A DNA stretch of 64,000 bases from Schmidtea nova (lineage: Eukaryota): assembly GCA_044892505.1 (NCBI GenBank), contig CM097882.1:394382001-394446000 (forward strand). The letters run 5' to 3'. Numbering within the stretch: position 1 is the stretch's first letter; each line of letters starts with the position of its first letter. Of this stretch, positions 1 through 59,116 are shown piece after piece. The notes below the pieces were generated by a model. The model was not told the origin of the DNA and did no database searches. It saw only the letters and a list, made by a program, of their open reading frames with translations. The position numbers were made by a program, and so were the translations under genes.

Positions 1-1616
1 AATAAGGCGATGACCATTACTATTTTCTTAACATTTCCCAAAATTACCAGCACTGCGTGTAGGCTTATTCACTGCTTCTGTTTTTCGTTATCTAGCTGGT
101 CAACGACTAAATATGTTTGATTAGTTTTATCTTTCCCAATCACATCAACGTTTTCACCAGCCCTCGCTCTGTGAAACCAATATCTGTTTCTTAACACACT
201 CTGATACCATACAAAATTTCGGGTGTGGACAATCCTTTACCAGATGATCCACCTAAAGGCAATTATAGCATAATCGCTTGTGTTTAACTAATTCTCTGCG
301 CTCATCGACAGTCAAGTTTCTAAACTCTTGAGATTGATTTAAAAATGATTGTTACTGCATTTCACGCAAGACAACGCTTTCTTTAGTTGTTCAGTTTGCT
401 CAATAATTTCTTTTCTTTTTCACTGTACTTCTCTCGACACAAATGTTCTTGTTCTTTCTGATCTCTTTGTTATGAAGTTACCTTGATTATTATTCTTCCA
501 AGATGGTTTCACCTGTATCTGCTCAATTCTTGACGTCATTCGTTGATCGGTAAAGTCATGCAATTCTTCTAATACGTTTCGCTTCATTTCTGCCAATTGA
601 AAGATTCACTTATCAACTGCATCTCCATTCCTCTCCTTTTTTATTGTCATTTCTCCATTTTGCCCACTGGAACACTAAATGTTTAGGTAACTTATTTATT
701 GAGCTTGATATAAAAATCCACCTTCAAGCTCATTTTTCATGCCCAAAGCTGTAAGTCTTATCATCATGGCGCTTATTAATTCTTGAAAAGCTTCCATTTA
801 ACCAATCGACACTGACCTAATAGTTGTAAAGCGGTTTACTTCCTCTTTCAACACCTGCATATCGCCTGTCTAATCACGTTAAGGCTGCTTCTTACGCATC
901 TGCTTTAAAACCGAGTTAATTTACAACTCTATACGGTTCGTCTTTTAGAGATTGCCTTAAATGCAACAATTTCTCTACAGTTGTCCCAAAAGCTGAATAC
1001 ACACAATCATCAAAAATTGCTCTCCACTGAACATATTCCAACGTTTTCCCATTGAACACCGGAATCTCTATCTTTTTTAATTTATCTAATCGTTTCAATG
1101 CTTAACCTTCATAACTTTTCTTCTTAGTTCTAATAATATTTTCTTTCTGGTTTAATAAATTCTGTCATTTTATTTCTTGGATTTCAATAGTTTTTTCCAT
1201 CACCTTTTCTCCTTGACCTCGATTCGTTTCATTAACTACACCCTTGTCAATTTCTAAAATCTTTTCAAATGAACTCCTTGATATTCCTCGAATAGAGCGC
1301 ATTTGCGAACCTACTTTAAAACATTTTTTTTCCATCTTATTCGCGAAATTTTCATCACGCTCTTTAATCGGTTATAATTCTTGATCAAAACGCTTGGCGA
1401 CTTCTAATTCATTCAGCTCTTCTGCTAAAATCTTTAGCCTGCTTCATTCCTTCTGCACCTATCCAAAGCTCTCTTCATATTTCTCTTTTCTTATCGATAG
1501 ATTCTCTACCGAGGGGTCTTCCGAGGCTCCCTTGAACAGTTTCGTTAAGTGCGCCTTTTGAAAAAGCCTGTTTCAAGTCCCTTCTTTGACTGCTTATGTT
1601 GGTCCTCTGTATTCAT
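1..1616 (-). mobile_element. BEL/Pao LTR retrotransposon, decayed gag and start of protease (continues past window start)
   Basis: Minus strand gives EIPVFNGKTLEYVQWRAIFDDCV...EKLLHLRQSLKDEP (Pao/DUF1759-type gag), zinc knuckles (LCYNCL*VDHLVKDCPHPKFC) and ISLHAVLVILGNVKKIVMVIALL leading into the protease. Many stops and frameshifts. No LTR seen upstream of gag. Confidence 0.85.
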
Positions 1617-1843
1617 TCTTCCTCTTAATCTCAACATCACATGAAAAGTAGATTCCCTTATATTATAATCAGATAGTTTTCTTCCGTCTTCCAGCGGTTT
1701 TCCTGCAAAAATAAGTCTTTCCTAGTCTGGTGGAATACCTTCTTTGTCTTGTATTTTCGCTTTCACACTGTCAGTTGTTTGATTGAACTCAAATTCTAAA
1801 GTGATGGTTTTTCCACTTATTGTCTTATTATTAAAATTTGGAT
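1617..1843 (-). pseudogene. Ubiquitin-like pseudogene or domain (absent from the ORF track)
   Basis: Manual translation: [74 protein letters not shown]. This aligns end to end with ubiquitin, with one TAG at a Gln position, a small 5' frameshift and GG changed to GR. Confidence 0.9.
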
Positions 1844-1850
1844 ACCTTGA

Positions 1851-2794
1851 TCTTTGAACAAAATAGCAACAGTCAAATAACTGACATGTCTAGGATCACA
1901 GGCAACCATCATGTTCTTAGCATCAAACATTTTTTGAGTTAGTTATGGAACTTTCAATGCACGATATTGTTGGCTTCCTCGACTTGTTAATGGAACGAAT
2001 CCTGGCATAAGGAAATGCAAACATGGAAATGGAACCATGTTAACAGCTAATTTTCTCAAATCAGCATTCAATTGACCAGGAAATCTCAAATATGTTATCA
2101 CTCCATTCACTGTAGCGCTTACTAAATTATTCAAATCCCTGTAAGTTGAAGTTGTCAATTTCAAAGTTTTCAAGTAAATATCGTATAAGGCTTCATTGTC
2201 AATACAGAATGTTTCATCTGTATTTTCAACCAATTGATGGACTGATAAAGTAGCAATGTAGGGTTCAACAACGGTGTTTGACACTTTGGGTGATGGAACA
2301 ACCGATAATATGTTTATGATTCTATTTGGATATTCTTCTCTGATTTTAGAGACAAGAAGAGTTCCCATTCCATATCCTGTTCCTCCTCCCAATGAGTGAG
2401 TCAATTGAAAACATCGCAAACAGTCACAAAATCCAGTTTCTTTTCATACAATATCTTAAACAGAGTCGACTTATTCTGCTCCTTTGATCTAATATACTTT
2501 GCCCAAGTTGTTACTAGCTCCACTTAGTCTGAAAACAAAGTTGTCTGGTCTGAATAATTGACCAAATGGTCCAGCTCACAGTACATGGATCCAAATCAAT
2601 CAGAACTGCTCTGGGAACAAACTTGCACCAGTAGCTTCATTATAATATGCATAATTTCTTTCTAGTTGCAAATCGGAATCTCCGTGGCATGCACCAGTTG
2701 GATCAATACCATGCTCATCATAAATAACTTCCCAAAACTTGGCACTAATTTTGATATTACATTGACCAGCTTGCAAGACAACAATTTCTCTCAT
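1851..2794 (-). pseudogene. TUBB: Processed (intronless), 3'-truncated beta-tubulin pseudogene
   Basis: [12 protein letters not shown]..., [15 protein letters not shown]..., [15 protein letters not shown]..., [19 protein letters not shown]. About 945 nt covers residues 1 to ~318, leaving no room for introns. Stops and frameshifts present. Confidence 0.93.
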
Positions 2795-4143
2795 TTTTGG
2801 TTAAATTAATTCGAAGTCAATCTCAAAAGTTAATTTTAAAAATTCAAAAAAAAATACATCTGGCTAAGGCTGAGTCATAAAGGCTTTAAAAACTTTCAGT
2901 TTTTTGTTTTTCTTATTAATTGATAAGCATTCAATTTATTTTCTTGATCCTTTTTTTGAAGTACTTAAAATACTATATATTAACTCCAAACTGCTTATAA
3001 TGAATTATTATTATTACTTAATTAATTCATAATTATTAAATAAGTTACGTGTTATACAAATTTTATAAATTATGTGTTTTTGCGATGACAAATTAAATTC
3101 TTAAAATTAACTTATAATTTTTGCACATTCTTTATCAAGTGTTAATAAACAAATAGTATTTTATTTAATTTGTTTTAACCAGGGGTCGCCAAAGAAGTCG
3201 ATATAGAATCCCTGGATAGATTTGGCATTGTTATAGGTCGAGTTGCTCTCGAGGTTCAATAGCGGATCGAGGGAATAGTTAATTAAAAATTCTTAATATA
3301 ACATGTATCTAAACTAATAATATAATGAGGAAAAAATACTAGAAGTAAATAACTGCAAAAATATTAAAATACAATATATAATATTTTTACAAAATATGGA
3401 CTCATTTTTCATTTAAGAGAAATTCTTGAAAAATAGTTATATATTTATATTTTAAATTTCAAAAAGTTGTTGGAGCTTATCTAAACAGGCACAAAATAAA
3501 ATAAATGCATAGAAAACTTTATATTAATCAAAAGAATAACAAAATTCAAAAAATAACAAATACAGTGCAAAATTAATTAAAAATAAAAATCAATATCTTG
3601 CTAGGGAAACAAGTTATGAGTGGATGCCAAATAATGAAATAAATCCAAAATTCATCATATTAAGTGAATGGGAGATAGGTGGTGTTTTAGAAGATATTGA
3701 ATTTATAATAGCGATAGGGTTTTCACCTTATATCATTGATGGTATTGGACTTCTAAATAACTTTGGAATTAAGTTGACTAAAATAGAAAAAAAATGTTGT
3801 AATGGACAATTTTGAACAGAAAAATTGACGAGATATGTAGCATTGTTGCTAAATTTGGAGAAATTATAAATGATGATTTGAAGCTACAAATGGTATAATA
3901 TAATTTAGAAATTAAAGAACATACCGAATTATTTAAAGAAATTGAAAGGAATGAATGCATATTTATGGCAAACAAATGGGATATAGGAAAAACAATTTGG
4001 GTTAAACATTCAATTGACACACCTGGTGGACCTATTCTAGTTAAGCCACGGAAACAGCCTATGCATTATGAAGAAAAAACTAATGAACCAATTAAAAATT
4101 TAGAGGAAGGTGGAACCATAAGGCAATGTGACTCACAGTGGAA

Positions 4144-5821
4144 GTTCCAAAATACTCCATCGCTTTGTAGAAACAGAAAAAATTGTAGAGTTCATGAACA
4201 ATACCAAAAAAATTTATTCCTTCGATGCAACAGTCCACAGCAGCCTCTCCCACTAAGTTAAGAGAATGACCTGAACATAGCAAGAATTTCGCCAGCTTAT
4301 TGAGTTCCAAAATTTTAGTTTTCATGCCTATATATTTTCCAGTCAAATTGCTCGCGTTATCATAAGACTGGCTTCTGCAGTTGCTGATTTCCAAGTTCAA
4401 TCTTTCGTCTAAAAAGCCCACGGTTACATTTGCTAAATTTTCCCCTGTGTGATAATCGATGTGGATGTAGTTGACAAATCTTTCAATTGGCTCATTAGAA
4501 GTTTGATCAATGTACCTCAAGATCACACATAGTTGATCTTTGTGGCTCACATCAGGTGTCGAGTCTACTGATAATCCATAATACTTCGATTTTAGACCAT
4601 CATCGCTGATTGATTGCAAAACTTTTTTTGCCATCAATACGATCAACTCCTCACATTTAGTCTTTGAGAGGTAGTTTGTTTTTCCAGAACCGCTGTCACC
4701 ATAATTTTTTATGTGTTCGGCCAAAAAAAGATCAAACTGTGCAATCAATTCGAGCAGACCAATAAAATTCCCGTTGCTCTCAGCCCCAAATTTTTCATTT
4801 GAACCTCTAAAAGTTAAGTTTCTTTCAATCAATTTGCAAATTACAGCCGTGACTCTTCTTAGAACCTCTCTCCAGTAGTTTTTCTCTTTGCGAATTTCGT
4901 TTAGAAATTGATCCTTTAAAACGTTGTTATTTTTTCTGTGAAAGTATGCTAAAGAAGCTTTTCTGTGGTCCGATGAGTTCTCATGGCCTTGAAATGATGC
5001 CACAGAATTTTTTCAATCTTTAAATCCCGTTAAGGCTAAAGCAAATTTTGAGGCTTCAAAAAGTTTGCAGACAAAACAGAATACACAACCCAACGCTGGT
5101 GAATATATGAGCCATTCTCTATTAAACGTTTCACCGTTCACTTTTTTCCCCACAAACAAGCTTTTTGAGCAATATCGATCGCGATCTTGATAAGTCATTA
5201 TAGAGGATTTAAAGTCATTATCTGCATTTTGACATGTTGATGGACCACTCTCTATCCAAAATTGTATTTCCTCAGCTGAAAGGTTATCCCAAAGTCCTGG
5301 ATCACTTTTTCTATTCAATGGCAAATCCTTTTGAATAACTGTCTCTTCATCAAGTTCTGATTGTTCGTTTAAAGTTTGAGTCACTTCGATTGAGTCCTCT
5401 AAAACACCCGATAAACTAGCTTCTTCACTTATGCCAAAGTTTGTAAAATTAGCTGAAGTTGATGAATAAGCATGAGATTCTGTTTTCAACAGAAAACTAT
5501 CGAGATTTCGATGTTTCTTAATGTTTTTTTCTATTTCTGCTTTTTTCTTTCTTTTTGCAGCTCCACTTTCATAAGTTCTTAAGGAGCTTCTTCCCATTTC
5601 TGGTTGAAATTTTTTTTTCTCGGAGAAATTAACTTAATGTTTTTTAATTTTAAGATGAAATTTTTATAAAAAAAAATATTAAAATCACTATGAAATAATT
5701 ATATTGCAAATCGATTGATATTAAAAAAATTTTTCATACTACTCAAAATTTTTTTGGGGCCCCTTATTTTGCGGGGCCTCTAGGCCATGGCCTAGTCGGC
5801 CTGCCTGTAAATCCGGCCCTG
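4144..5821 (-). mobile_element. hAT DNA transposon (ZMYM1-like/DUF4371-type transposase), 3' part deleted
   Basis: Terminus CAGGGCCGG at 5821. ORFs 5013-5597 and 4092-5003 are one frame split by a single TGA (GFKD*KNS). TTF-type zinc finger (CVFCFVCKLF) and DSTPDVSHKDQL, QSYDNASN, CSGHSLNL motifs. AGTGGAA repeated on both flanks. Confidence 0.9.
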
Positions 5822-6265
5822 AGTGGAACCCACCTTTAGTATGTGTTTGGAAGAAGAAAAAATCGATATTCGATTATGTTTCGATTTCAGATGTTTGAAT
5901 AAAATTACTGAAGTGAAAGCATTCCCAATGCCAATATAGAGAAGATGTTAGATATTCTGAATGGCTCAAAATATTTTAGTACAATTGATTAAGTTACTGT
6001 ATATTATCAAGTGGAACTTGATGAATCTTCAAAAATTAAAACTGCGTTTTCTACTAAAATAGGTCAATATTGTTTCATTAGAATGCCATTTGGTATTGCA
6101 GCCGCAGCGGCTACTTTTCAAAAGTTAATGACTTAGGAGATTTGATTTTGAAAGACACAATTGTTTATTTAGGCAATATTTATATTTGGTGAAAAAAGGA
6201 AGAACATCTAAAAGCGAATTGAAAAAGTTCTCGATAGAATTAAGTTTGCTGGATTGAAAGTAAAT

Positions 6266-6597
6266 TTTTACTCTCTATTAACTTCGCTGATGTATGTATG
6301 TTTGTATGTGCCACGCAAATTTTCCTAGGCCAAATTAATCAACTTTCCGTGATTGGATTGAGTTGAAATTTGGCAAGTATATCCGTTGTCGAGAACACTG
6401 TAAGCTATCAAAACTTAAGATCGATCCGAACACTGAAAGTGGTTAATTAAAAAAAATCAACCATAAAAAAGTGATTTTACGTAATAATAAATATTTCATA
6501 GCACTGAGAACGCTTATTGAAATTTTAGTTTTGAGTAAAATTTAAAGAATGAAATATAGAGAGTTTCAAAAACCATGTTTTTTATGGTTGATTTTTT
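6266..6597 (+). mobile_element. Probable Helentron-associated (HINE/DINE-1-like) non-autonomous insert within gypsy RT
   Basis: Interrupts the RT frame in a T run. Has a (GTAT)n/GTTT microsatellite near its 5' end, a TGAAATTTGGCA motif and a 20-bp inverted repeat (6451-6470 / 6578-6597). Confidence 0.45.
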
Positions 6598-8719
6598 GAA
6601 GAATGAAACAAAATTTCTCTTGCATATTATAAATGCAGATGAAATTCAATCGGATAAGAATAAACTTGTGTCAATAAAGAATTTTGAAAGACCAAATTGT
6701 AAAAAAAAATTGAGAAATTTCCTAGGAATATACAAAGTTTGCTAGAATATTGAAAGGAAAGTGTGGAACAATAAATAAAAGCTAATACGGTCAAATGATT
6801 GCGAGGAAGCGTTTAAAGAATTGAAAAACGCATCATCAGTAACCCCAAGGCTTATATATTCAGATTTTAGGAAAACGTCATTCTGAATATTGGCCCAAGT
6901 TTTGATTCTATAGGTGCAGTGCTGTCACAAAAAGACGAACATAAAAACGAGAGTTGTTGCTTTAGGTTCACACATAATGAGTAATCATGAAATCTGAAAC
7001 TGTACTACGAGGAAAGAATTATTTGCAAAATATTATTTTACTCAACATTTTAAGGAACTCAACCTTTTTACTCAACTTTTGTGGTACAAAATTTACTTTA
7101 AGAACTGACCATAAACAAATCATCTTTATGATTGAAACAAAGAAGCCAATCGTCGCACAATTTCATACGTGGATAAACCTTTTAATCAGAATGGATATTG
7201 ATATAGAATATAGGAAATGAACAAAACATTCAAATGCTGAAATTCAAGAAACAAATGCGGAAAATGTACACAAAGTTTGATGATTCATGAAAATGCTTAA
7301 GTGGAAAAAATAAGACAAGATTTCTTGCAATGATTTCAGAAAGTCAAAGTAAAGTATGGGAAGATAATAATGATGAAGTTAAGAAATATTCAGAACAATT
7401 AGAAGAGATAATGAACAATAATAAATTTAAAATCACAGATGGAATATTAAAAACACACAATAAAAATACTTTGATTTCAAAAAGCAGTCGAAAAGACTTC
7501 ATTATAAATATGCATGAGATATTGTGCCACTCGGGTGTTCAAAAAGTGATAGAATACACCAAAACTGAAAAATATATGTTATAGAAGTTATTCAATGATG
7601 TGAAATATGGCGAAAGAGTAAAGTATGGACAACAAAGGCAAAAGAAACCATTAAGGTTTCAGAAATGGTACAACCTTTTTAAATAATATTTGTTAATTTT
7701 TGCGAGTCGTTGCTGGTAAATATTTATGGAAGAAAATAAATTCTCGGAATAATTGATCATTGTAGTAGATACAGTTCATTGTCTGCAATAAATTCCCAAG
7801 ATTAAATAAATACAGTAAAAATACTTATAAAAGAATGGATACTAAAATTTGGTGCTCCCAGAATGATATTATTAGAATGTGGAAAAACATTTGAATTTCG
7901 AATGATTATAGAGCTTTCTGAAAAATACGATATTTTTTGGTATATAATGGGAGTATTATAGCCCATATCATCATAATACAAATGGATTGATAGAAAGACA
8001 ATTCAGGACAATTAGAGAATATATGAGTGCTTTGCTTGAAGACCGTCTGGGGAAAGATTAGGTGGAGATATTGCCAGAAATTGAATTTACGATGAACACA
8101 ACAATTCAGAATACTATTGTCCAGCAGAAGTTATTTTTGAATTCAATCGTACAAGAGAATGGGCGCGAAGTGTGGATAGAATTGTTATGAGAGAAGAAAA
8201 TATTAGATATGCACAAGGAAAATAGAAAAATAAGCAATAAAAAATGAGTACAAAGAATTTTCCATTTTCATGAAAAAGCTTTAGTTAAGGTTGACATTCG
8301 ATCAAAGTAGGGCCATTTGTGAAGTGGTCGAAAAAGTACACGAGAGGAGCTATAGGTTGAAAGATATGATCGGTAGGATTTTAAACCGAAATGAGGAATG
8401 TTTGAAAACCTTTCACAAAGGATGTTAGATATTATATTAATTTGAACTATATTTGTAATAAATATAATTATTAAATTATTTATCAGTATTATATTTTATT
8501 TATAAACATTGACGTGAAATATTATTGTTGTTATTGGAATATTTAAATCAATTGTTATAATCAAATAGTTTTATGATATTTCATATTGTTGATATATAAT
8601 AAAGTTTAAAAATGTAGATCCTTTGAATTTAACATCATTTAGTTAATTTTTTAAGAGTTTCATTACTTTTTTGGCAAACCACGTATGTATTTTTAAATTA
8701 TAAATTTTCTATGTACCTT

Positions 8720-10928
8720 AAATTTTGAGATGTAATGAATCAGCGTATGATTTTTACTATCTACTCGTTGTATTTATACTATAAGGAAGCTTAAACTTTG
8801 AAACGTTGTGTATTTTGCTTATTGTCTTCAATTTTAATAATTTTTACAGCTACAGTAAAACCAATGACAACTTCAGATTCTATTTATTCATTCGTTCACA
8901 AGCGTAACGATGCATTAAGGTTTTTGTGAAAAGCCTTTAGTAACTGTAAAGAGTTTTAAAATTCTTGATTATATTCTTAGATTATTATTCCTTCTTATTT
9001 TCAATCGATCTTTTTTAAGCGCTATCTCAGTTTTTGTCTTGATCGGATTTAATTCGTTTACTTCCAAAATAATAATTATATTTTCTAATTCGTTTTTTAA
9101 TCGTTTTCTATAATTTCTTTTTCTATTTCAATTTCTTCAGTAACTTAGTATTTTAGAATATAAAAATTTTTTATTTGTATTGATTTTTTAATTTGTCAAT
9201 TTGGCTTACTATAGCATTTGCTATAGTAAGCCAAATTCGAAATTCAAATTCAAATAATTAAATTAAAATGATAATAGTTATAATAAAAACTTAGCAAACA
9301 AAAAACAAAAGGGGGTACAAAACCGTCACTCTAATAATAATCACACTAATAATAAAGATTAACTACTCATTACACACACACACACACATATATATATATA
9401 TTTATGGTAATATGTTGTGATTTATTTATTATGTTTATTATTACCTTGTGTATTATTATGTCGAGAATAAAGGTGTTTAGGAAGAAGTTGTAAAACCCGA
9501 GAGAGTCCTACAATATCGGTGTGCAGACACTCGGGGTGTATGCTGTGTAGTTAGGTGCCTGTAGGAGTACTTGCGTGCGTGTGTATGCTTGAATGTACAA
9601 TAATAATAACAAATTAATGGTTTATGAAATTATACTAAAACAAATTACTTAAATCAAATCAAGAAAATAAACTACGAACAAGTTACTTATAATTTGTAAT
9701 TGGGTTTGGCTTCCTCAATCTTAAGTTTAAATTATTCTTTTGTCTAGATTTTCTGTTAACTTTAGAAATAGTAATAAATTAGATTCGGCTGATAAAACTC
9801 ATTATTATTTTTTTTAATTTAAAAAAAAATCAATAGTATTTATTTGTGTAGTTTACTATAGTTATTTACTATAGTAAGCTTTATATTCAAAATTCGAAAT
9901 TTGAATTTTGATTATAATATTTTAATTATTATAATACTGGAAAAATTGACCAAAAAAGGGGGTACCACACCTTTACAATAGAAATCGCAATCACACATAA
10001 TAATAAAATAATAAAGGCAATAATAAAAATAACCTAAACAGTAAAATACGACATTAACACACACACACATATATATATAGTGAATGAAAAAGAGTTGTGT
10101 AGGAGAAGCTGTAGAATCCGAGAGAGTCTCCGATTTAATGTTGGGACACTCGGGGTGTGTGTTGTGTAAGTGAATGAGTGTATGTCGTAGAAGGTTGTAC
10201 CAACCGATAGACAATGAATAAATATTTTATATAAAACTAAAAATTAAATTTACAATATATATTCAAACAAACAATGTTAAAGAATGATTACCACAACTGT
10301 TGGAGATGGGTAGTCACATAAACTGACGATAATCGAATCTTTACCTAGCCTTTAGTCGTACTTCTCTTCCGTTATTTTCTTTTAATTTCACAGTTATTTA
10401 GTTATAAATTTAATTAAGGTTCCTATTTGAATTTTATTTGGATAATTCTAGTTTTCGGAAAATTGACTTTTCAATTGTGTTATTTTCTAGTTTTTATTTC
10501 CTTTTCTGTTGTCGAGTCACCACTTTTATTAATGATGCTCCTTGAGTTTTCTTTGGATAATTCTAGTTTCGGTTATCTAGTTTTGTTTCGGAAGGTTAAC
10601 TTCTCGATTGTTTTAATTTCTAGTTTTTATTTCCTTTACAGTTGTTGGGTCACAAATTTTATTAATGATCAATTTTCTTTGAGTTTTCTTTAGATATAAA
10701 CTGTATCATAAAATTTATCTTTTTGAATTAATTATCGATTATTTTCTAATTGTCAATTTGTTTTCTATAGTTATTTATAGTTATTTATTTTAAATTTATA
10801 GTTATTTATTTATAGTTATTTATTTAAACTTTTAAATTAAATTTTAATTTAACAATAATTTAACAAAAAACAAAAAGGGGGGAACAAAATATAGGGGAAA
10901 ATAAAACACACGCATTGAGAACATTACA
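8720..10928. repeat. Three tandem, diverged solo-LTR-like units, each followed by (CA)n(TA)n
   Basis: Units end in CATTA(A)CA at 9374, 10059 and 10928. Shared motifs: AAAAGGGGG(T)AC in all three; CCGAGAGAGTC...GACACTCGGGG hairpin and GT-rich tract in two. Layout resembles the CsRn1-like LTRs at 22927 and 32041. The left boundary is approximate. Confidence 0.55.
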
Positions 10929-12900: not shown

Positions 12901-13187
12901 TAGTAAACCTTCAAGGTAATTAATTAATAATGATCTAAAAAGGACATTATCCGGAATATTCTTGAATGTTTTATTTGTATAAAGATTTGTACATAAGGAT
13001 ACGGATTTATTAATAAAATGACTTCTTGAATATTTTCAAATGAACTCTAAAGAACCTAAAATGTTTACCTCAGAGTTCATTTGAAAGTATTCAAGAAGTT
13101 ATTTTTAAAATAAATCTGGATTTGCATATACAGATATATACAAATATATGCAAATTTATAGTAAAAATAACTTTAAAACCTTTTGTG

Positions 13188-13748
13188 GCCACTGTTGCCA
13201 CTGTTACCATTGTTACCACTGTTGCCACTGTTGCCATTGTTGCCACTGTTGCCACTGTTACCACTGTTGCCACTGTTGCCATTGTTGCCACTGTTGCCAT
13301 TGTTGCCACTGTTACCACTGTTGCCACTGTTGCCACTGTTGCCATTGTTGCCACTGTTGCCACTGTTGCCACTGTTGCCACTGTTGCCACTGTTACCACT
13401 GTTGCCACTGTTGCCACTGTTGCCACTGTTGCCACTGTTGCCATTGTTGCCACTGTTACCACTGTTGCCACTGTTGCCATTGTTGCCACTGTTACCACTG
13501 TTGCCACTGTTACCACTGTTGCCACTGTTGCCACTGTTGCCACTGTTACCACTGTTGCCACTGTTACCACTGTTGCCACTGTTACCACTGTTGCCACTGT
13601 TGCCACTGTTGCCACTGTTACCACTGTTGCCACTGTTGCCACTGTTACCACTGTTGCCACTGTTGCCACTGTTGCCATTGTTGCCACTGTTGCCACTGTT
13701 GCCACTGTTGCCACTGTTGCCACTGTTACCACTGTTGCCACTGTTGCC
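13188..13748. repeat. 9-bp minisatellite (GCCACTGTT)n, ~62 copies
   Basis: Direct reading. Only two recurrent variants (ACCACTGTT, GCCATTGTT). No stop codons in any frame, which explains the overlapping ORFs. Confidence 0.97.
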
Positions 13749-13996
13749 CCCTCCGGATATCCGAGGATTCATAATTTTTAAGAAATTGAAAAGTAAATTA
13801 TTTAAAAATAATTAATAACTTTGTCAAATGTTTATTTATAGTAGTGTCAAATTTTTGACAAAAAAGGAAATTTTTGTAAAGAATTACAGTACAATATGCA
13901 TCCAAACGTTTGATAATTATCATCACTGTCGAGAAATTTATTCTTTTAACATTTATGTTAAAATTAAATTTCATTAAAATACTTTACAATTTTTAG

Positions 13997-14332: not shown

Positions 14333-14386
14333 GTGTGAATTTTGTTTTTATATAACCATGAACATCAAATTTACTGTCATTTTCAG

Positions 14387-14617
14387 ATAGAGTAAATGGA
14401 TTTGATACTTGTCACACTCTGATGCCGGGGTCATACCTTGGTGAAATGTCCAAATCAGTTCATGGGAAGGATTGCTTAACCTGGAAGCTTTTTGGGTCTT
14501 TGGACGAAAGAATAGAAATTATATTTTATGAAAAAACCGATATGCATAATTTCTGCCGAATTACAAACAATACCATTAAACCTTGGTGTTATGTTGGCTC
14601 GTATCGCCAATACTGTG
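14387..14617 (+). CDS. Exon encoding a kringle domain (runs into gap)
   Basis: TTTTCAG acceptor, phase 1. DTCHTLMPGSYLGEMSKSVHGKDCLTW...HNFCRITNNTIKPWCYVGSYRQYC matches the kringle C..YxG..C..W..HNxCR..PWCY pattern. Confidence 0.88.
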
Positions 14618-37872: not shown

Positions 37873-38152
37873 GATTTCATTTTCAGTCGAATACGTCTGC
37901 TTAACCCTTTCAAAAGTTGGTTTATTGGTTTACGAAGACTACTATATTCCGAATGGCATTATTATTGGGGTAAATATGCCAAATTCAAATATTGGCTAAA
38001 TAATGTTGAACCTCAAAATACTGGCCAAACCCCTTTGTGTGCTGTTATTGGTAAATATGAAAACGATACATGGGATGCTGTCAAGTGTATGGAAACACAT
38101 CCATTCATATGCCAATATACAGAATCTCCAAATGATCAGTTTTCTAGCGATT
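37873..38152 (+). CDS. Exon: C-terminal half of a C-type lectin domain (not in ORF track)
   Basis: TTTAG acceptor, phase 0. DFIFSRIRLLNPFKSWFIGLRR...W..YAKFKYWLNNVEPQNTGQTPLCAVIGKYENDTWDAVKCMETHPFICQY contains the WIGL, EP, C..W.D..C..FIC signature. Phase-1 GTAAAC donor. Confidence 0.88.
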
Positions 38153-38349
38153 GTAAACAATTTTCTAAAATTCTTTACTAATTTTAACTTATTTTCAATT
38201 ATTCTTATAAAATCAACCCTGTTACTCATTTTTCAAGAGTTATATTTGTATTTATTAAGCGTATTATACATCCATTACTAAAAGGCAAATGGATGAATCA
38301 TGAGATTTATTTAACGCACAATTATTTATAGCTTAAAGAAGAACTAGAC

Positions 38350-57518: not shown

Positions 57519-57995
57519 TAAACACGAAATTGCCAAACAATAGAAATATATTTCAAGGACATAGTCCTCATCATCAGTCAGCCATCATAATCTAAATCAA
57601 ATGTTATATACGGAAACAGTAATGACGTAATGGCTATGATTTAATGAGTTAATTAAATAATCTCAATAAATTCGTTGCTGATTGAATATTAATTGTAGGA
57701 GATTGTGATTTAATCACCAACACCTCACATAAAATTCTTTCCCATTTATTGCTTAACTTTAACAATAAATGGGAAAGAATTTTATGTGAGGCGTTGGTGA
57801 TTAAATCACAATCTCCTACAATTAAAATTCAATCAGCAACGAATTTATTGAGATTATTTAATTAACTCATTAAATCATAGCCATTACGTCATTACTGTTT
57901 CCGTATATAACATTTGATTTAGATTATGATGGCAGACTGATGATGAGGACTTGAAATATATTTCTATTATTTGGCAATTTTGTGTTTTTTTTAAT
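57519..57995. repeat. Large foldback element (~230-bp arms, ~12-nt loop) inserted in the Buster transposase
   Basis: 57519-57750 is the reverse complement of 57762-57995, with a few substitutions and one 7-nt indel. Preceded by (TA)n. Confidence 0.9.
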
Positions 57996-59116
57996 NNNNN
58001 NNNNNNNNNNNNNNNNNNNNNNNNNNNNNNNNNNNNNNNNNNNNNNNNNNNNNNNNNNNNNNNNNNNNNNNNNNNNNNNNNNNNNNNNNNNNNNNNNNNN
58101 NNNNNNNNNNNNNNNNNNNNNNNNNNNNNNNNNNNNNNNNNNNNNNNNNNNNNNNNNNNNNNNNNNNATAGTAGTTGTTTGAAATTCATTGCAAAATAAA
58201 AACTTGTCAATAAAATCTTTTTTGTAAATAAATCTAATAAAACAGACAAGTTGACTTTTTCCGGAAATATCCATACTTTTTTCTAACTGAAGTGCAAATT
58301 GCAATTTTTTAGAAATATAGTTTGAAATTCTTAATTCTATATTAGCAGACATATCCAATATTCTTCTTCTAATAGTATCATTTGAATGATGAATGGTAAT
58401 AGTACCCAGATAGCAACTTTGAACAAAAAACATTTCAAAAATACTACCAAAAAATTGCGTGATAATTCATACGGATTTATAAAGCAAATTTAAACAAAAC
58501 ACATTTCAAAAATCCTACCAAAGAAAATGCGCAATAACTCAAAGTGGTTCAAACTGGACATAGCTACCTACCTACAATTCTTTCATTATAACTACAGACA
58601 GGCAAAATTAATTCCTCTCCGATATTATGAGGTTTCCTTTTTATTGCAATCAATTCTGCGATTTTGTAATAAATCATTAGACTTATTTCAGAAATTTTAG
58701 CAAATTTTCTAAATTTGTGCTTTGATGTCTTCGAAGACTCTTTCAACTGCTCAAAATAACCAATTGGTTTAGCTTTTAAGCTTGTATGGCAAGTAACAAA
58801 ATGCCTACCAAGCCTGATTGGAACAAGAGATTCATTTGATAATTTTGCAAAACATTTTATACAAATTGGTATATGCGTTTCATTTTCAACTTTTTAATCA
58901 AATCGAAATTTTAAATAGGCATCTGTATATTTTCTTTTTGTGATTTTTAAAAATTTTTCGTTTCAATTTGCTTTGAGAGTTCATCATCCTTTTCATTTGA
59001 ATTCTTCTTTTTAATTTCAATAAATTTATCCATTAAATTTATGGGGTAATGTTTTTATATACTCTGATTTCACTTATTATTTTAGTTTGATTTTATATTT
59101 AAATAATTAAAATATG

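Follow-up and report, generated by a model that had tools for sequence, protein, structure and literature searches.

It has been shown that long terminal repeat (LTR) retrotransposons of the BEL/Pao group (Belpaoviridae), which live in animal hosts, carry a gag with a DUF1759 region and a CCHC zinc knuckle (PMC3118150), and that template switching can capture host mRNAs, also by Pao and BEL elements and with two-gene chimeras among the products (PMC5131818). The Pao element BATUMI made one of the multi-gene chimeras in the latter work, Tan et al. 2016. Ubiquitin precursors are cleaved at the junction with their partner (PMC8122580). Here we describe a locus at the start of a 64,000-nucleotide stretch of Schmidtea nova DNA (GCA_044892505.1, contig CM097882.1, positions 394,382,001 to 394,446,000; the whole stretch is called the window below), in which the minus strand reads beta-tubulin (2794-1850), two linker codons, ubiquitin (1843-1617) and a BEL/Pao gag that runs past the window start. 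We consider it reasonably probable, while well short of certain, that this is a decayed copy of a BEL/Pao-type element with a native ubiquitin-Gly-Gly-Gag frame and an upstream slot for captured host housekeeping pieces, which deubiquitinases would cut off. The element shares with described BEL/Pao elements its DUF1759 gag with a CCHC knuckle and its animal-type host, and differs from those of PMC3118150 in the ubiquitin-Gly-Gly and host-derived leader before gag. LTR-mediated retroposition (PMC5131818) yields partial, intron-free host coding pieces on LTR-element sequence, with no poly(A), and the host piece at this locus, which has neither intron nor poly(A), may be of the same kind.

Results

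Organisation of the locus

Domain matches on the minus strand confirmed the co-oriented layout of tubulin, ubiquitin and BEL gag that had been proposed in a preliminary description of this DNA. The beta-tubulin piece (1850-2794), comprising residues 1-319 and sitting in what we call the leader slot, opens at its own ATG at 2794 (MREI...) and is matched by solved beta-tubulins through residue 319, where the match stops at position 1850; the end had previously been placed at about residue 318. Over its middle part of 241 residues the match to solved beta-tubulins reaches E 5e-125. The piece measures 945 bases against 957 expected and is therefore intronless, and it is decayed: the frames read contain five stops, a few bases are deleted near 2580, and the frame breaks near 2620.

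Two codons for Gln-Gly (1844-1849) link the tubulin in frame with the ubiquitin unit (1617-1843; Pfam PF00240, E 6e-20), which starts with IQIL at 1843 and ends in LRLRGR, that is Gly-Arg, at 1617, where five relatives have Gly-Gly. The earlier claim that tubulin reads in the same frame into ubiquitin holds at the join itself, but it omitted a frame shift that falls within the first six ubiquitin codons; the remaining damage to this unit is one stop and one missing codon. An ATG at 1616 follows ubiquitin directly, and a T/A run near 1560 breaks the frame before QKAHLTKL and the gag, in agreement with the ATG and the subsequent frameshift to KAHLTKL noted before. Codons are continuous between ubiquitin and gag and leave no space for an LTR there, as had also been observed. 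Neither a poly(A) tail nor a flanking duplication is visible at the tubulin-ubiquitin or the ubiquitin-gag join. Bases where tubulin meets ubiquitin could be read as resembling a primer site; this reading was set aside, as ubiquitin codons account for them.

The gag begins with an N-terminal helical region (1280-1616), defined by alignment with relatives (database proteins, designated P0008 and so on) and by a structural model of P0053 that has three helices here. Its closest match is P0011, 48% over 94 residues. A capsid-type DUF1759 region with stops and frame shifts follows at 640-1110 (P0008, 55% over 84 residues); its DUF1759 match is weak and below the cut-off (E 0.0036), which all six ubiquitin-bearing relatives described below clear. 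The zinc-knuckle region (190-345) has one clear CCHC knuckle, at about 273-223, and others that are decayed; zf-CCHC scores E 4e-4 and, at 20.7 bits, falls just short of the 20.8-bit cut-off. Matches by tblastn to BEL gag relatives extend from 1590 down to about 190, the knuckle part at 345-187. As judged from these alignments, the window gag is of BEL type with zinc knuckles after the capsid region; the element continues beyond the window start, with pol and the 3' LTR outside view, and it is placed here only as BEL/Pao-type, above the level of the groups that the pol tree separates (Flow, Sinbad, Suzu, Tas, BEL, Pao and Dan). There is no second BEL copy in the 64-kb window. Of 244 words sampled from 900-3300, a share of 0.39-0.62 occurs in four sequencing runs of one organism and one study, possibly the source sample and with no RNA run among those listed; this share speaks neither for nor against the joins.

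The captured tubulin retains its N-terminal MREI at 2783-2794 on the minus strand. This motif couples the decay of tubulin mRNA to free tubulin, and in the captured piece it could have acted as a regulator of the element RNA.

Ubiquitin directly before gag in related proteins

The preliminary description had raised the question of whether ubiquitin precedes gag in more than one BEL element, and the answer from database proteins is that it does so in six. The query was the window gag frame only (856-1560, stops as X), with ubiquitin left out. A word-indexed search of longer proteins gave one match among 1099 candidates, P0008, which carries ubiquitin and DUF1759. In an exhaustive gag-only search 219 proteins passed, and among the best 150 listed, many of them fragments and 9 without a located capsid motif, Pfam ubiquitin was found in four, P0009 and P0010 (ranks 1 and 2), P0053 and P0141, each time directly before gag; at least 180 residues precede the capsid motif in 45 of the listed 150, and four of these 45 carry ubiquitin. 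A profile of the gag parts only added P0160, one of its two matches carrying ubiquitin. Profile searching at near lengths, with 8000 candidates scored, added only P0159, which lacks ubiquitin. In a scan of metagenome DNA, 166 pattern matches led to one locus (L001), whose BEL gag has no ubiquitin in front of it, and a scan of viral DNA gave a locus from none of its 89 pattern matches. The ESM Atlas returned DUF1759 clusters only, at 0.80-0.81, which are to be taken as leads.

In all six natural proteins (P0008, P0009, P0010, P0053, P0141 and P0160) ubiquitin stands directly before gag, and its end lies 113-127 residues from the capsid motif, in register with the first gag helix. Its C-terminus is Gly-Gly in five of the six, the other being P0141. 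As far as these protein sequences go, the ubiquitin-gag join is a family trait and not a one-off. Of the two origins put forward in the preliminary description, six gag-found proteins with one register and five Gly-Gly ends support the native ubiquitin-Gag lineage, and the one-off double template switch is not needed for this join, which relatives already have. Further along P0009 there is a weak match to a DUF1758 protease (E 0.008), the more distant matches P0033, P0039 and P0055 carry Peptidase_A17 and reverse transcriptase, and full-length matches also carry integrase.

The model of P0053, which is intact, shows a ubiquitin fold at about 1 A root-mean-square deviation from solved ubiquitin, with Gly-Gly in a loop followed by three gag helices. 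The matches listed in fold searches with this model were taken up by ubiquitin, and they inform on its fold. A ubiquitin fold with an exposed Gly-Gly end is accordingly predicted for the relatives, the decayed window copy ending in Gly-Arg. In the relatives Gly-Gly is followed by Val, Gly, Ser, Ser and Ser, and the corresponding residue in the window is Met. Under the N-end rule Val, Gly, Ser and Met are stabilising; cleavage is sensitive to Pro after Gly-Gly, and none of the residues here is Pro.

Other BEL gag pieces are found next to host domains. In P0091 an AMPK glycogen-binding domain (residues 14-93, E 1e-25) stands directly before a BEL capsid region (129-199) without ubiquitin, which may reflect a further host piece fused with BEL gag or may come from stitching in the gene model. 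BEL gag pieces are fused to acylphosphatase in P0011 and to CCDC149 in P0098; both are probably chimeric gene models.

The leader slot

P0010 and P0160 both have Hsp90 middle-domain pieces in frame before ubiquitin, ending at one motif, with the Hsp90 match stopping 8 and 3 residues short of ubiquitin, respectively, compared with two codons after tubulin in the window. These Hsp90 pieces are identical at 38 of 63 positions, in proteins whose capsids are only 48% alike, and in P0160 a further host piece, which matches RPB10 chains at E 4e-16, stands at the very start. The tubulin of the window occupies the slot held by Hsp90 pieces in the two relatives. Position 1 of the window ubiquitin is Ile instead of Met, as it is in P0010 and P0160, and the IQI start therefore occurs in the three copies with host pieces upstream; on sequence grounds, the change of Met 1 to Ile agrees with a ubiquitin that sits inside a longer frame, the translation of which begins further upstream. 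Pfam and the P0160 Hsp90 piece served as references for the leaders of P0008, P0010 and P0053. A candidate Hsp90 remnant in the P0053 leader was rejected, with 1147 of 2000 shuffles scoring as high.

Capsid kinship and decay

In a FastTree analysis of capsid columns with 88 rows (those with at least 140 residues of the capsid region, plus the ubiquitin rows), the window and the six ubiquitin relatives form one side of a branch with support 81, and shuffled ubiquitin labels needed a mean of 6.8 changes on this tree, none of 500 shuffles being as low as the actual labelling. IQ-TREE with 27 chosen rows placed the seven ubiquitin rows in a 100/99 clade together with P0094 and P0098, which begin inside gag, so that their upstream content is out of view.

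The window ubiquitin is identical to canonical ubiquitin at 50 of 68 residues, a degree of change that does not exceed that of the tubulin (189 of 241; Fisher P 0.49). Residues common to the window and a relative were considered as proof of inheritance and rejected, since only 4 of 16 differences from canonical ubiquitin recur in a relative, which is not significant (shuffled 2.4, P 0.21).

All three parts had been called decayed in the preliminary description, and this is borne out, with stops spread as for one age. The stops number 5 in tubulin, 1 in ubiquitin and 8 in gag, where about 6.5, 1.3 and 6.2 are expected (P 0.63-0.79) from the nonsense opportunity under three mutation spectra over 300, 68 and 235 codons read, in a test that rests on few events and from which modest age differences would escape. 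Tubulin, ubiquitin and gag are equally decayed, which fits one unit of one age. In the middle part of the tubulin, 52 differences among 241 residues were counted by eye, and 5 of them are stops, where neutral decay predicts 2.7-3.6. Nothing in the piece points to a lengthy period as an open frame, and because its share of stops fits plain neutral decay, the tubulin was likely captured shortly before the death of the window copy.

Upstream sequence and the rest of the window

An AT-rich stretch of 385 bases (2795-3179, minus strand) precedes the tubulin ATG and may be tubulin 5' untranslated region or element LTR. It has no partner copy in the window. It is bounded at 3180-3195 by a transposon end, outside the retroelement, which we take to be hAT-like from its motif type and for which no convincing partner was found. 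Upstream of tubulin no 5' LTR is identifiable, the sequence there being cut by other transposons, and the window contains no tRNA gene for primer-site comparison.

Beyond this, a hAT-type transposase (DUF4371, E 2e-16) lies at 4092-5633 on the minus strand, with its 5' end near 5821, its frame interrupted by a Gypsy-like piece on the opposite strand (3899-4150, plus), and a Gypsy remnant at about 5822-8430 adjoins it. Two related CA/TA-microsatellite units at about 9300-9560 and 9950-10200 (best 77% over 79 bases) form a small repeat, and an array of a 9-base unit at about 13150-13770 has about 65 copies with several frames open. A kringle-domain exon (14362-14610, plus strand, E 1e-8) and a C-type lectin exon (37873-38181, plus strand, E 2e-7) are probably host gene exons amid transposons. 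Long direct repeats of 79-91% identity (26926-27511/33674-34236, 26189-26923/49406-50140 and 62140-62739/63410-64000) likely include an LTR pair around a Gypsy element, plus copies of other repeats. A near-perfect inverted repeat at 57563-57951, of 194 bases with a 1-base gap, lies just before an N gap at 57996 and is likely an assembly artefact.

Discussion

A working model of the element

In the reading that we favour, translation would start in the leader, which in the window copy means at the tubulin's own ATG, and Met 1 of ubiquitin would be free to drift to Ile because of this upstream start. The host pieces were likely captured by switching of the reverse transcriptase to co-packaged mRNA, so that the template switch invoked in the preliminary description would stand as the likely source of the tubulin piece, but is not required for the ubiquitin-gag join. 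Host deubiquitinases would likely cut the polyprotein after Gly-Gly, as they do with host ubiquitin precursors, and would free Gag with the same N-terminus whatever leader precedes ubiquitin. Upstream in-frame captures would therefore cost little, and ubiquitin could serve as an insulator behind which such captures are harmless, heritable and replaceable. A stronger form of this proposal, which we regard as possible and rather doubtful, is that ubiquitin is a cleavable insulator and that the slot has been loaded repeatedly with pieces of abundant host mRNAs (tubulin, Hsp90 and RPB10) for their start codons and expression signals; the signals borrowed in the window copy might then, with the same reserve, be the ATG and the MREI autoregulation motif of tubulin. 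Were the leader part of the LTR, it would be duplicated at the two ends of the element in every round of replication, and the lineage would then shuffle exons continuously and give rise to housekeeping pseudogenes.

Several observations weigh against a native ubiquitin-Gag frame with a replaceable leader. The six relatives are single predicted proteins, most of them on short contigs and known as protein only, and some may be stitched gene models, as P0011 appears to be, with parts brought together by splicing. One of them, P0141, has a ubiquitin ending in Glu-Gly; P0008 and P0053 retain Met 1 and have no Pfam host domain upstream, and P0009 and P0141 begin too near ubiquitin to reveal a leader. 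The join of tubulin, ubiquitin and gag is known from one assembled copy, in which LTRs, a primer site and pol are out of sight. IQ-TREE did not recover a clade of ubiquitin rows only, requiring two label changes, with one change in 7% of bootstrap trees, and every row in the trees came from queries taken from the window, a choice that biases the rows towards grouping around it. Ubiquitin identity does not track capsid identity, the nearest capsid, that of P0008 (56%), being accompanied by the most distant ubiquitin (25%), and the residue comparison leaves inheritance of the window's ubiquitin sequence itself unsupported. The ubiquitin slot may have been inherited while the window's ubiquitin sequence was refreshed from host mRNA or kept by selection; a refresh is possible because the window ubiquitin is nearer to host ubiquitin than capsid kinship predicts.

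Alternative explanations differ in which of the joins they accept as native. It is unlikely, if by no means far-fetched, that the ubiquitin-Gag frame is native and the tubulin an unrelated intronless copy or pseudogene, abutted by a deletion or insertion of DNA and in frame by chance. The region is a nest of transposons with one such copy known, no 5' LTR is identifiable upstream, and the AT-rich sequence before the tubulin ATG could be genomic, all of which a chance neighbour would accommodate. Such a neighbour would have to join in frame two codons before ubiquitin residue 1, where two relatives have host pieces, and would leave to coincidence the equal decay in all parts; moreover, Ile for Met 1, as in those relatives, needs an upstream start. 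We think it quite improbable that a single double template switch joined tubulin and polyubiquitin mRNAs to the gag of a ubiquitin-free BEL element, since the closest gag relatives already have ubiquitin at exactly this point and the switch could at most have refreshed the sequence in an existing slot. The similar decay of ubiquitin and tubulin (50/68 and 189/241, Fisher P 0.49) does speak for such an event, as the ubiquitin must therefore have been near-canonical when the copy died, and multi-gene chimeras made by Pao elements have been published (PMC5131818).

Retention of Gly-Gly in five of the six relatives, though the rest of the unit has drifted, makes it very improbable that the layout is as described and ubiquitin stays uncut, helping Gag to fold or marking it for degradation or trafficking. 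Uncleaved ubiquitin fusions do exist (PMC8122580), and the strong divergence of the units of P0008 and P0141 (25-45% to the others) is compatible with a role of this kind, but particles would likely assemble less well if Gag kept a broken tubulin or Hsp90 piece of 300 residues. An assembly error at the tubulin-ubiquitin join would account for the layout with no biology at all, and the window does contain four N gaps, one of them beside the near-perfect 194-base hairpin. We hold this, too, to be very improbable, since repeats of a length that could misjoin contigs are absent from the junction, tubulin and ubiquitin meet in frame at a slot common to the relatives, and decay is equal on both sides of the join.

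Relation to known systems

A BEL/Pao lineage in which ubiquitin-Gly-Gly-Gag is native and the host-derived leader can be replaced appears to be undescribed so far. The main text of the BEL/Pao survey of de la Chaux and Wagner 2011 (PMC3118150), as distinct from its element sequences, does not contain the word ubiquitin, and DUF1759, PF03564 and PF05380 have no occurrences in the available part of the supplement of the ubiquitin-fusion catalogue PMC8122580. We found no account of an LTR retrotransposon that naturally carries and inherits a ubiquitin-Gag fusion in the literature searched, which included PMC9289625 and had Repbase, GyDB and most subscription papers outside its scope. If the favoured reading is true, the first step in processing the polyprotein is left to deubiquitinases of the host. 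This reading suggests that in-frame host sequence upstream, being cut off, could persist in an element with a whole gag without crippling it, and this bears on how retroelements gain cargo. It also calls for caution in annotation, as what looks in these genomes like a pseudogene of tubulin, Hsp90 or ubiquitin, or like an unusual fusion model, may belong to an element.

In pestiviruses an inserted ubiquitin acts as a cleavage signal. As is proposed for the window, cytopathic pestiviruses such as bovine viral diarrhoea virus (BVDV) have captured host ubiquitin into a polyprotein at a processing junction, in their case by RNA recombination and often within mosaic inserts (PMC13517609); these are recurrent, short-lived events in an RNA virus, whereas here ubiquitin would be a fixed trait of a reverse-transcribing lineage. 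The Burro giant Gypsy elements of planarians (Arkhipova and Yushenova 2019; PMC6431247) are alike in having captured domains in the polyprotein, one of them Ubi2/SUMO-like, and unlike the window element in being Gypsy, with Gag N-terminal and the ubiquitin-like unit far inside the polyprotein. Ubiquitin fusion precursors (Ub-eL40, Ub-eS31 and algal Ub-actin; PMC8122580) share with the relatives a ubiquitin ending in Gly-Gly and, if the favoured reading is true, a partner released by cleavage; here, in contrast, that partner is the Gag of a retrotransposon, and ubiquitin lies inside the frame, after a captured leader. The flanks of the captured host piece in the window are element sequence on the 3' side and the AT-rich stretch 2795-3179 on the 5' side. 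In the chimeras of Tan et al. 2016 the host piece replaces part of the element's open reading frames and the product is non-autonomous (PMC5131818), in contrast to the window layout, where the host piece stands in frame before a ubiquitin spacer, the gag is whole, and the arrangement recurs across diverged elements.

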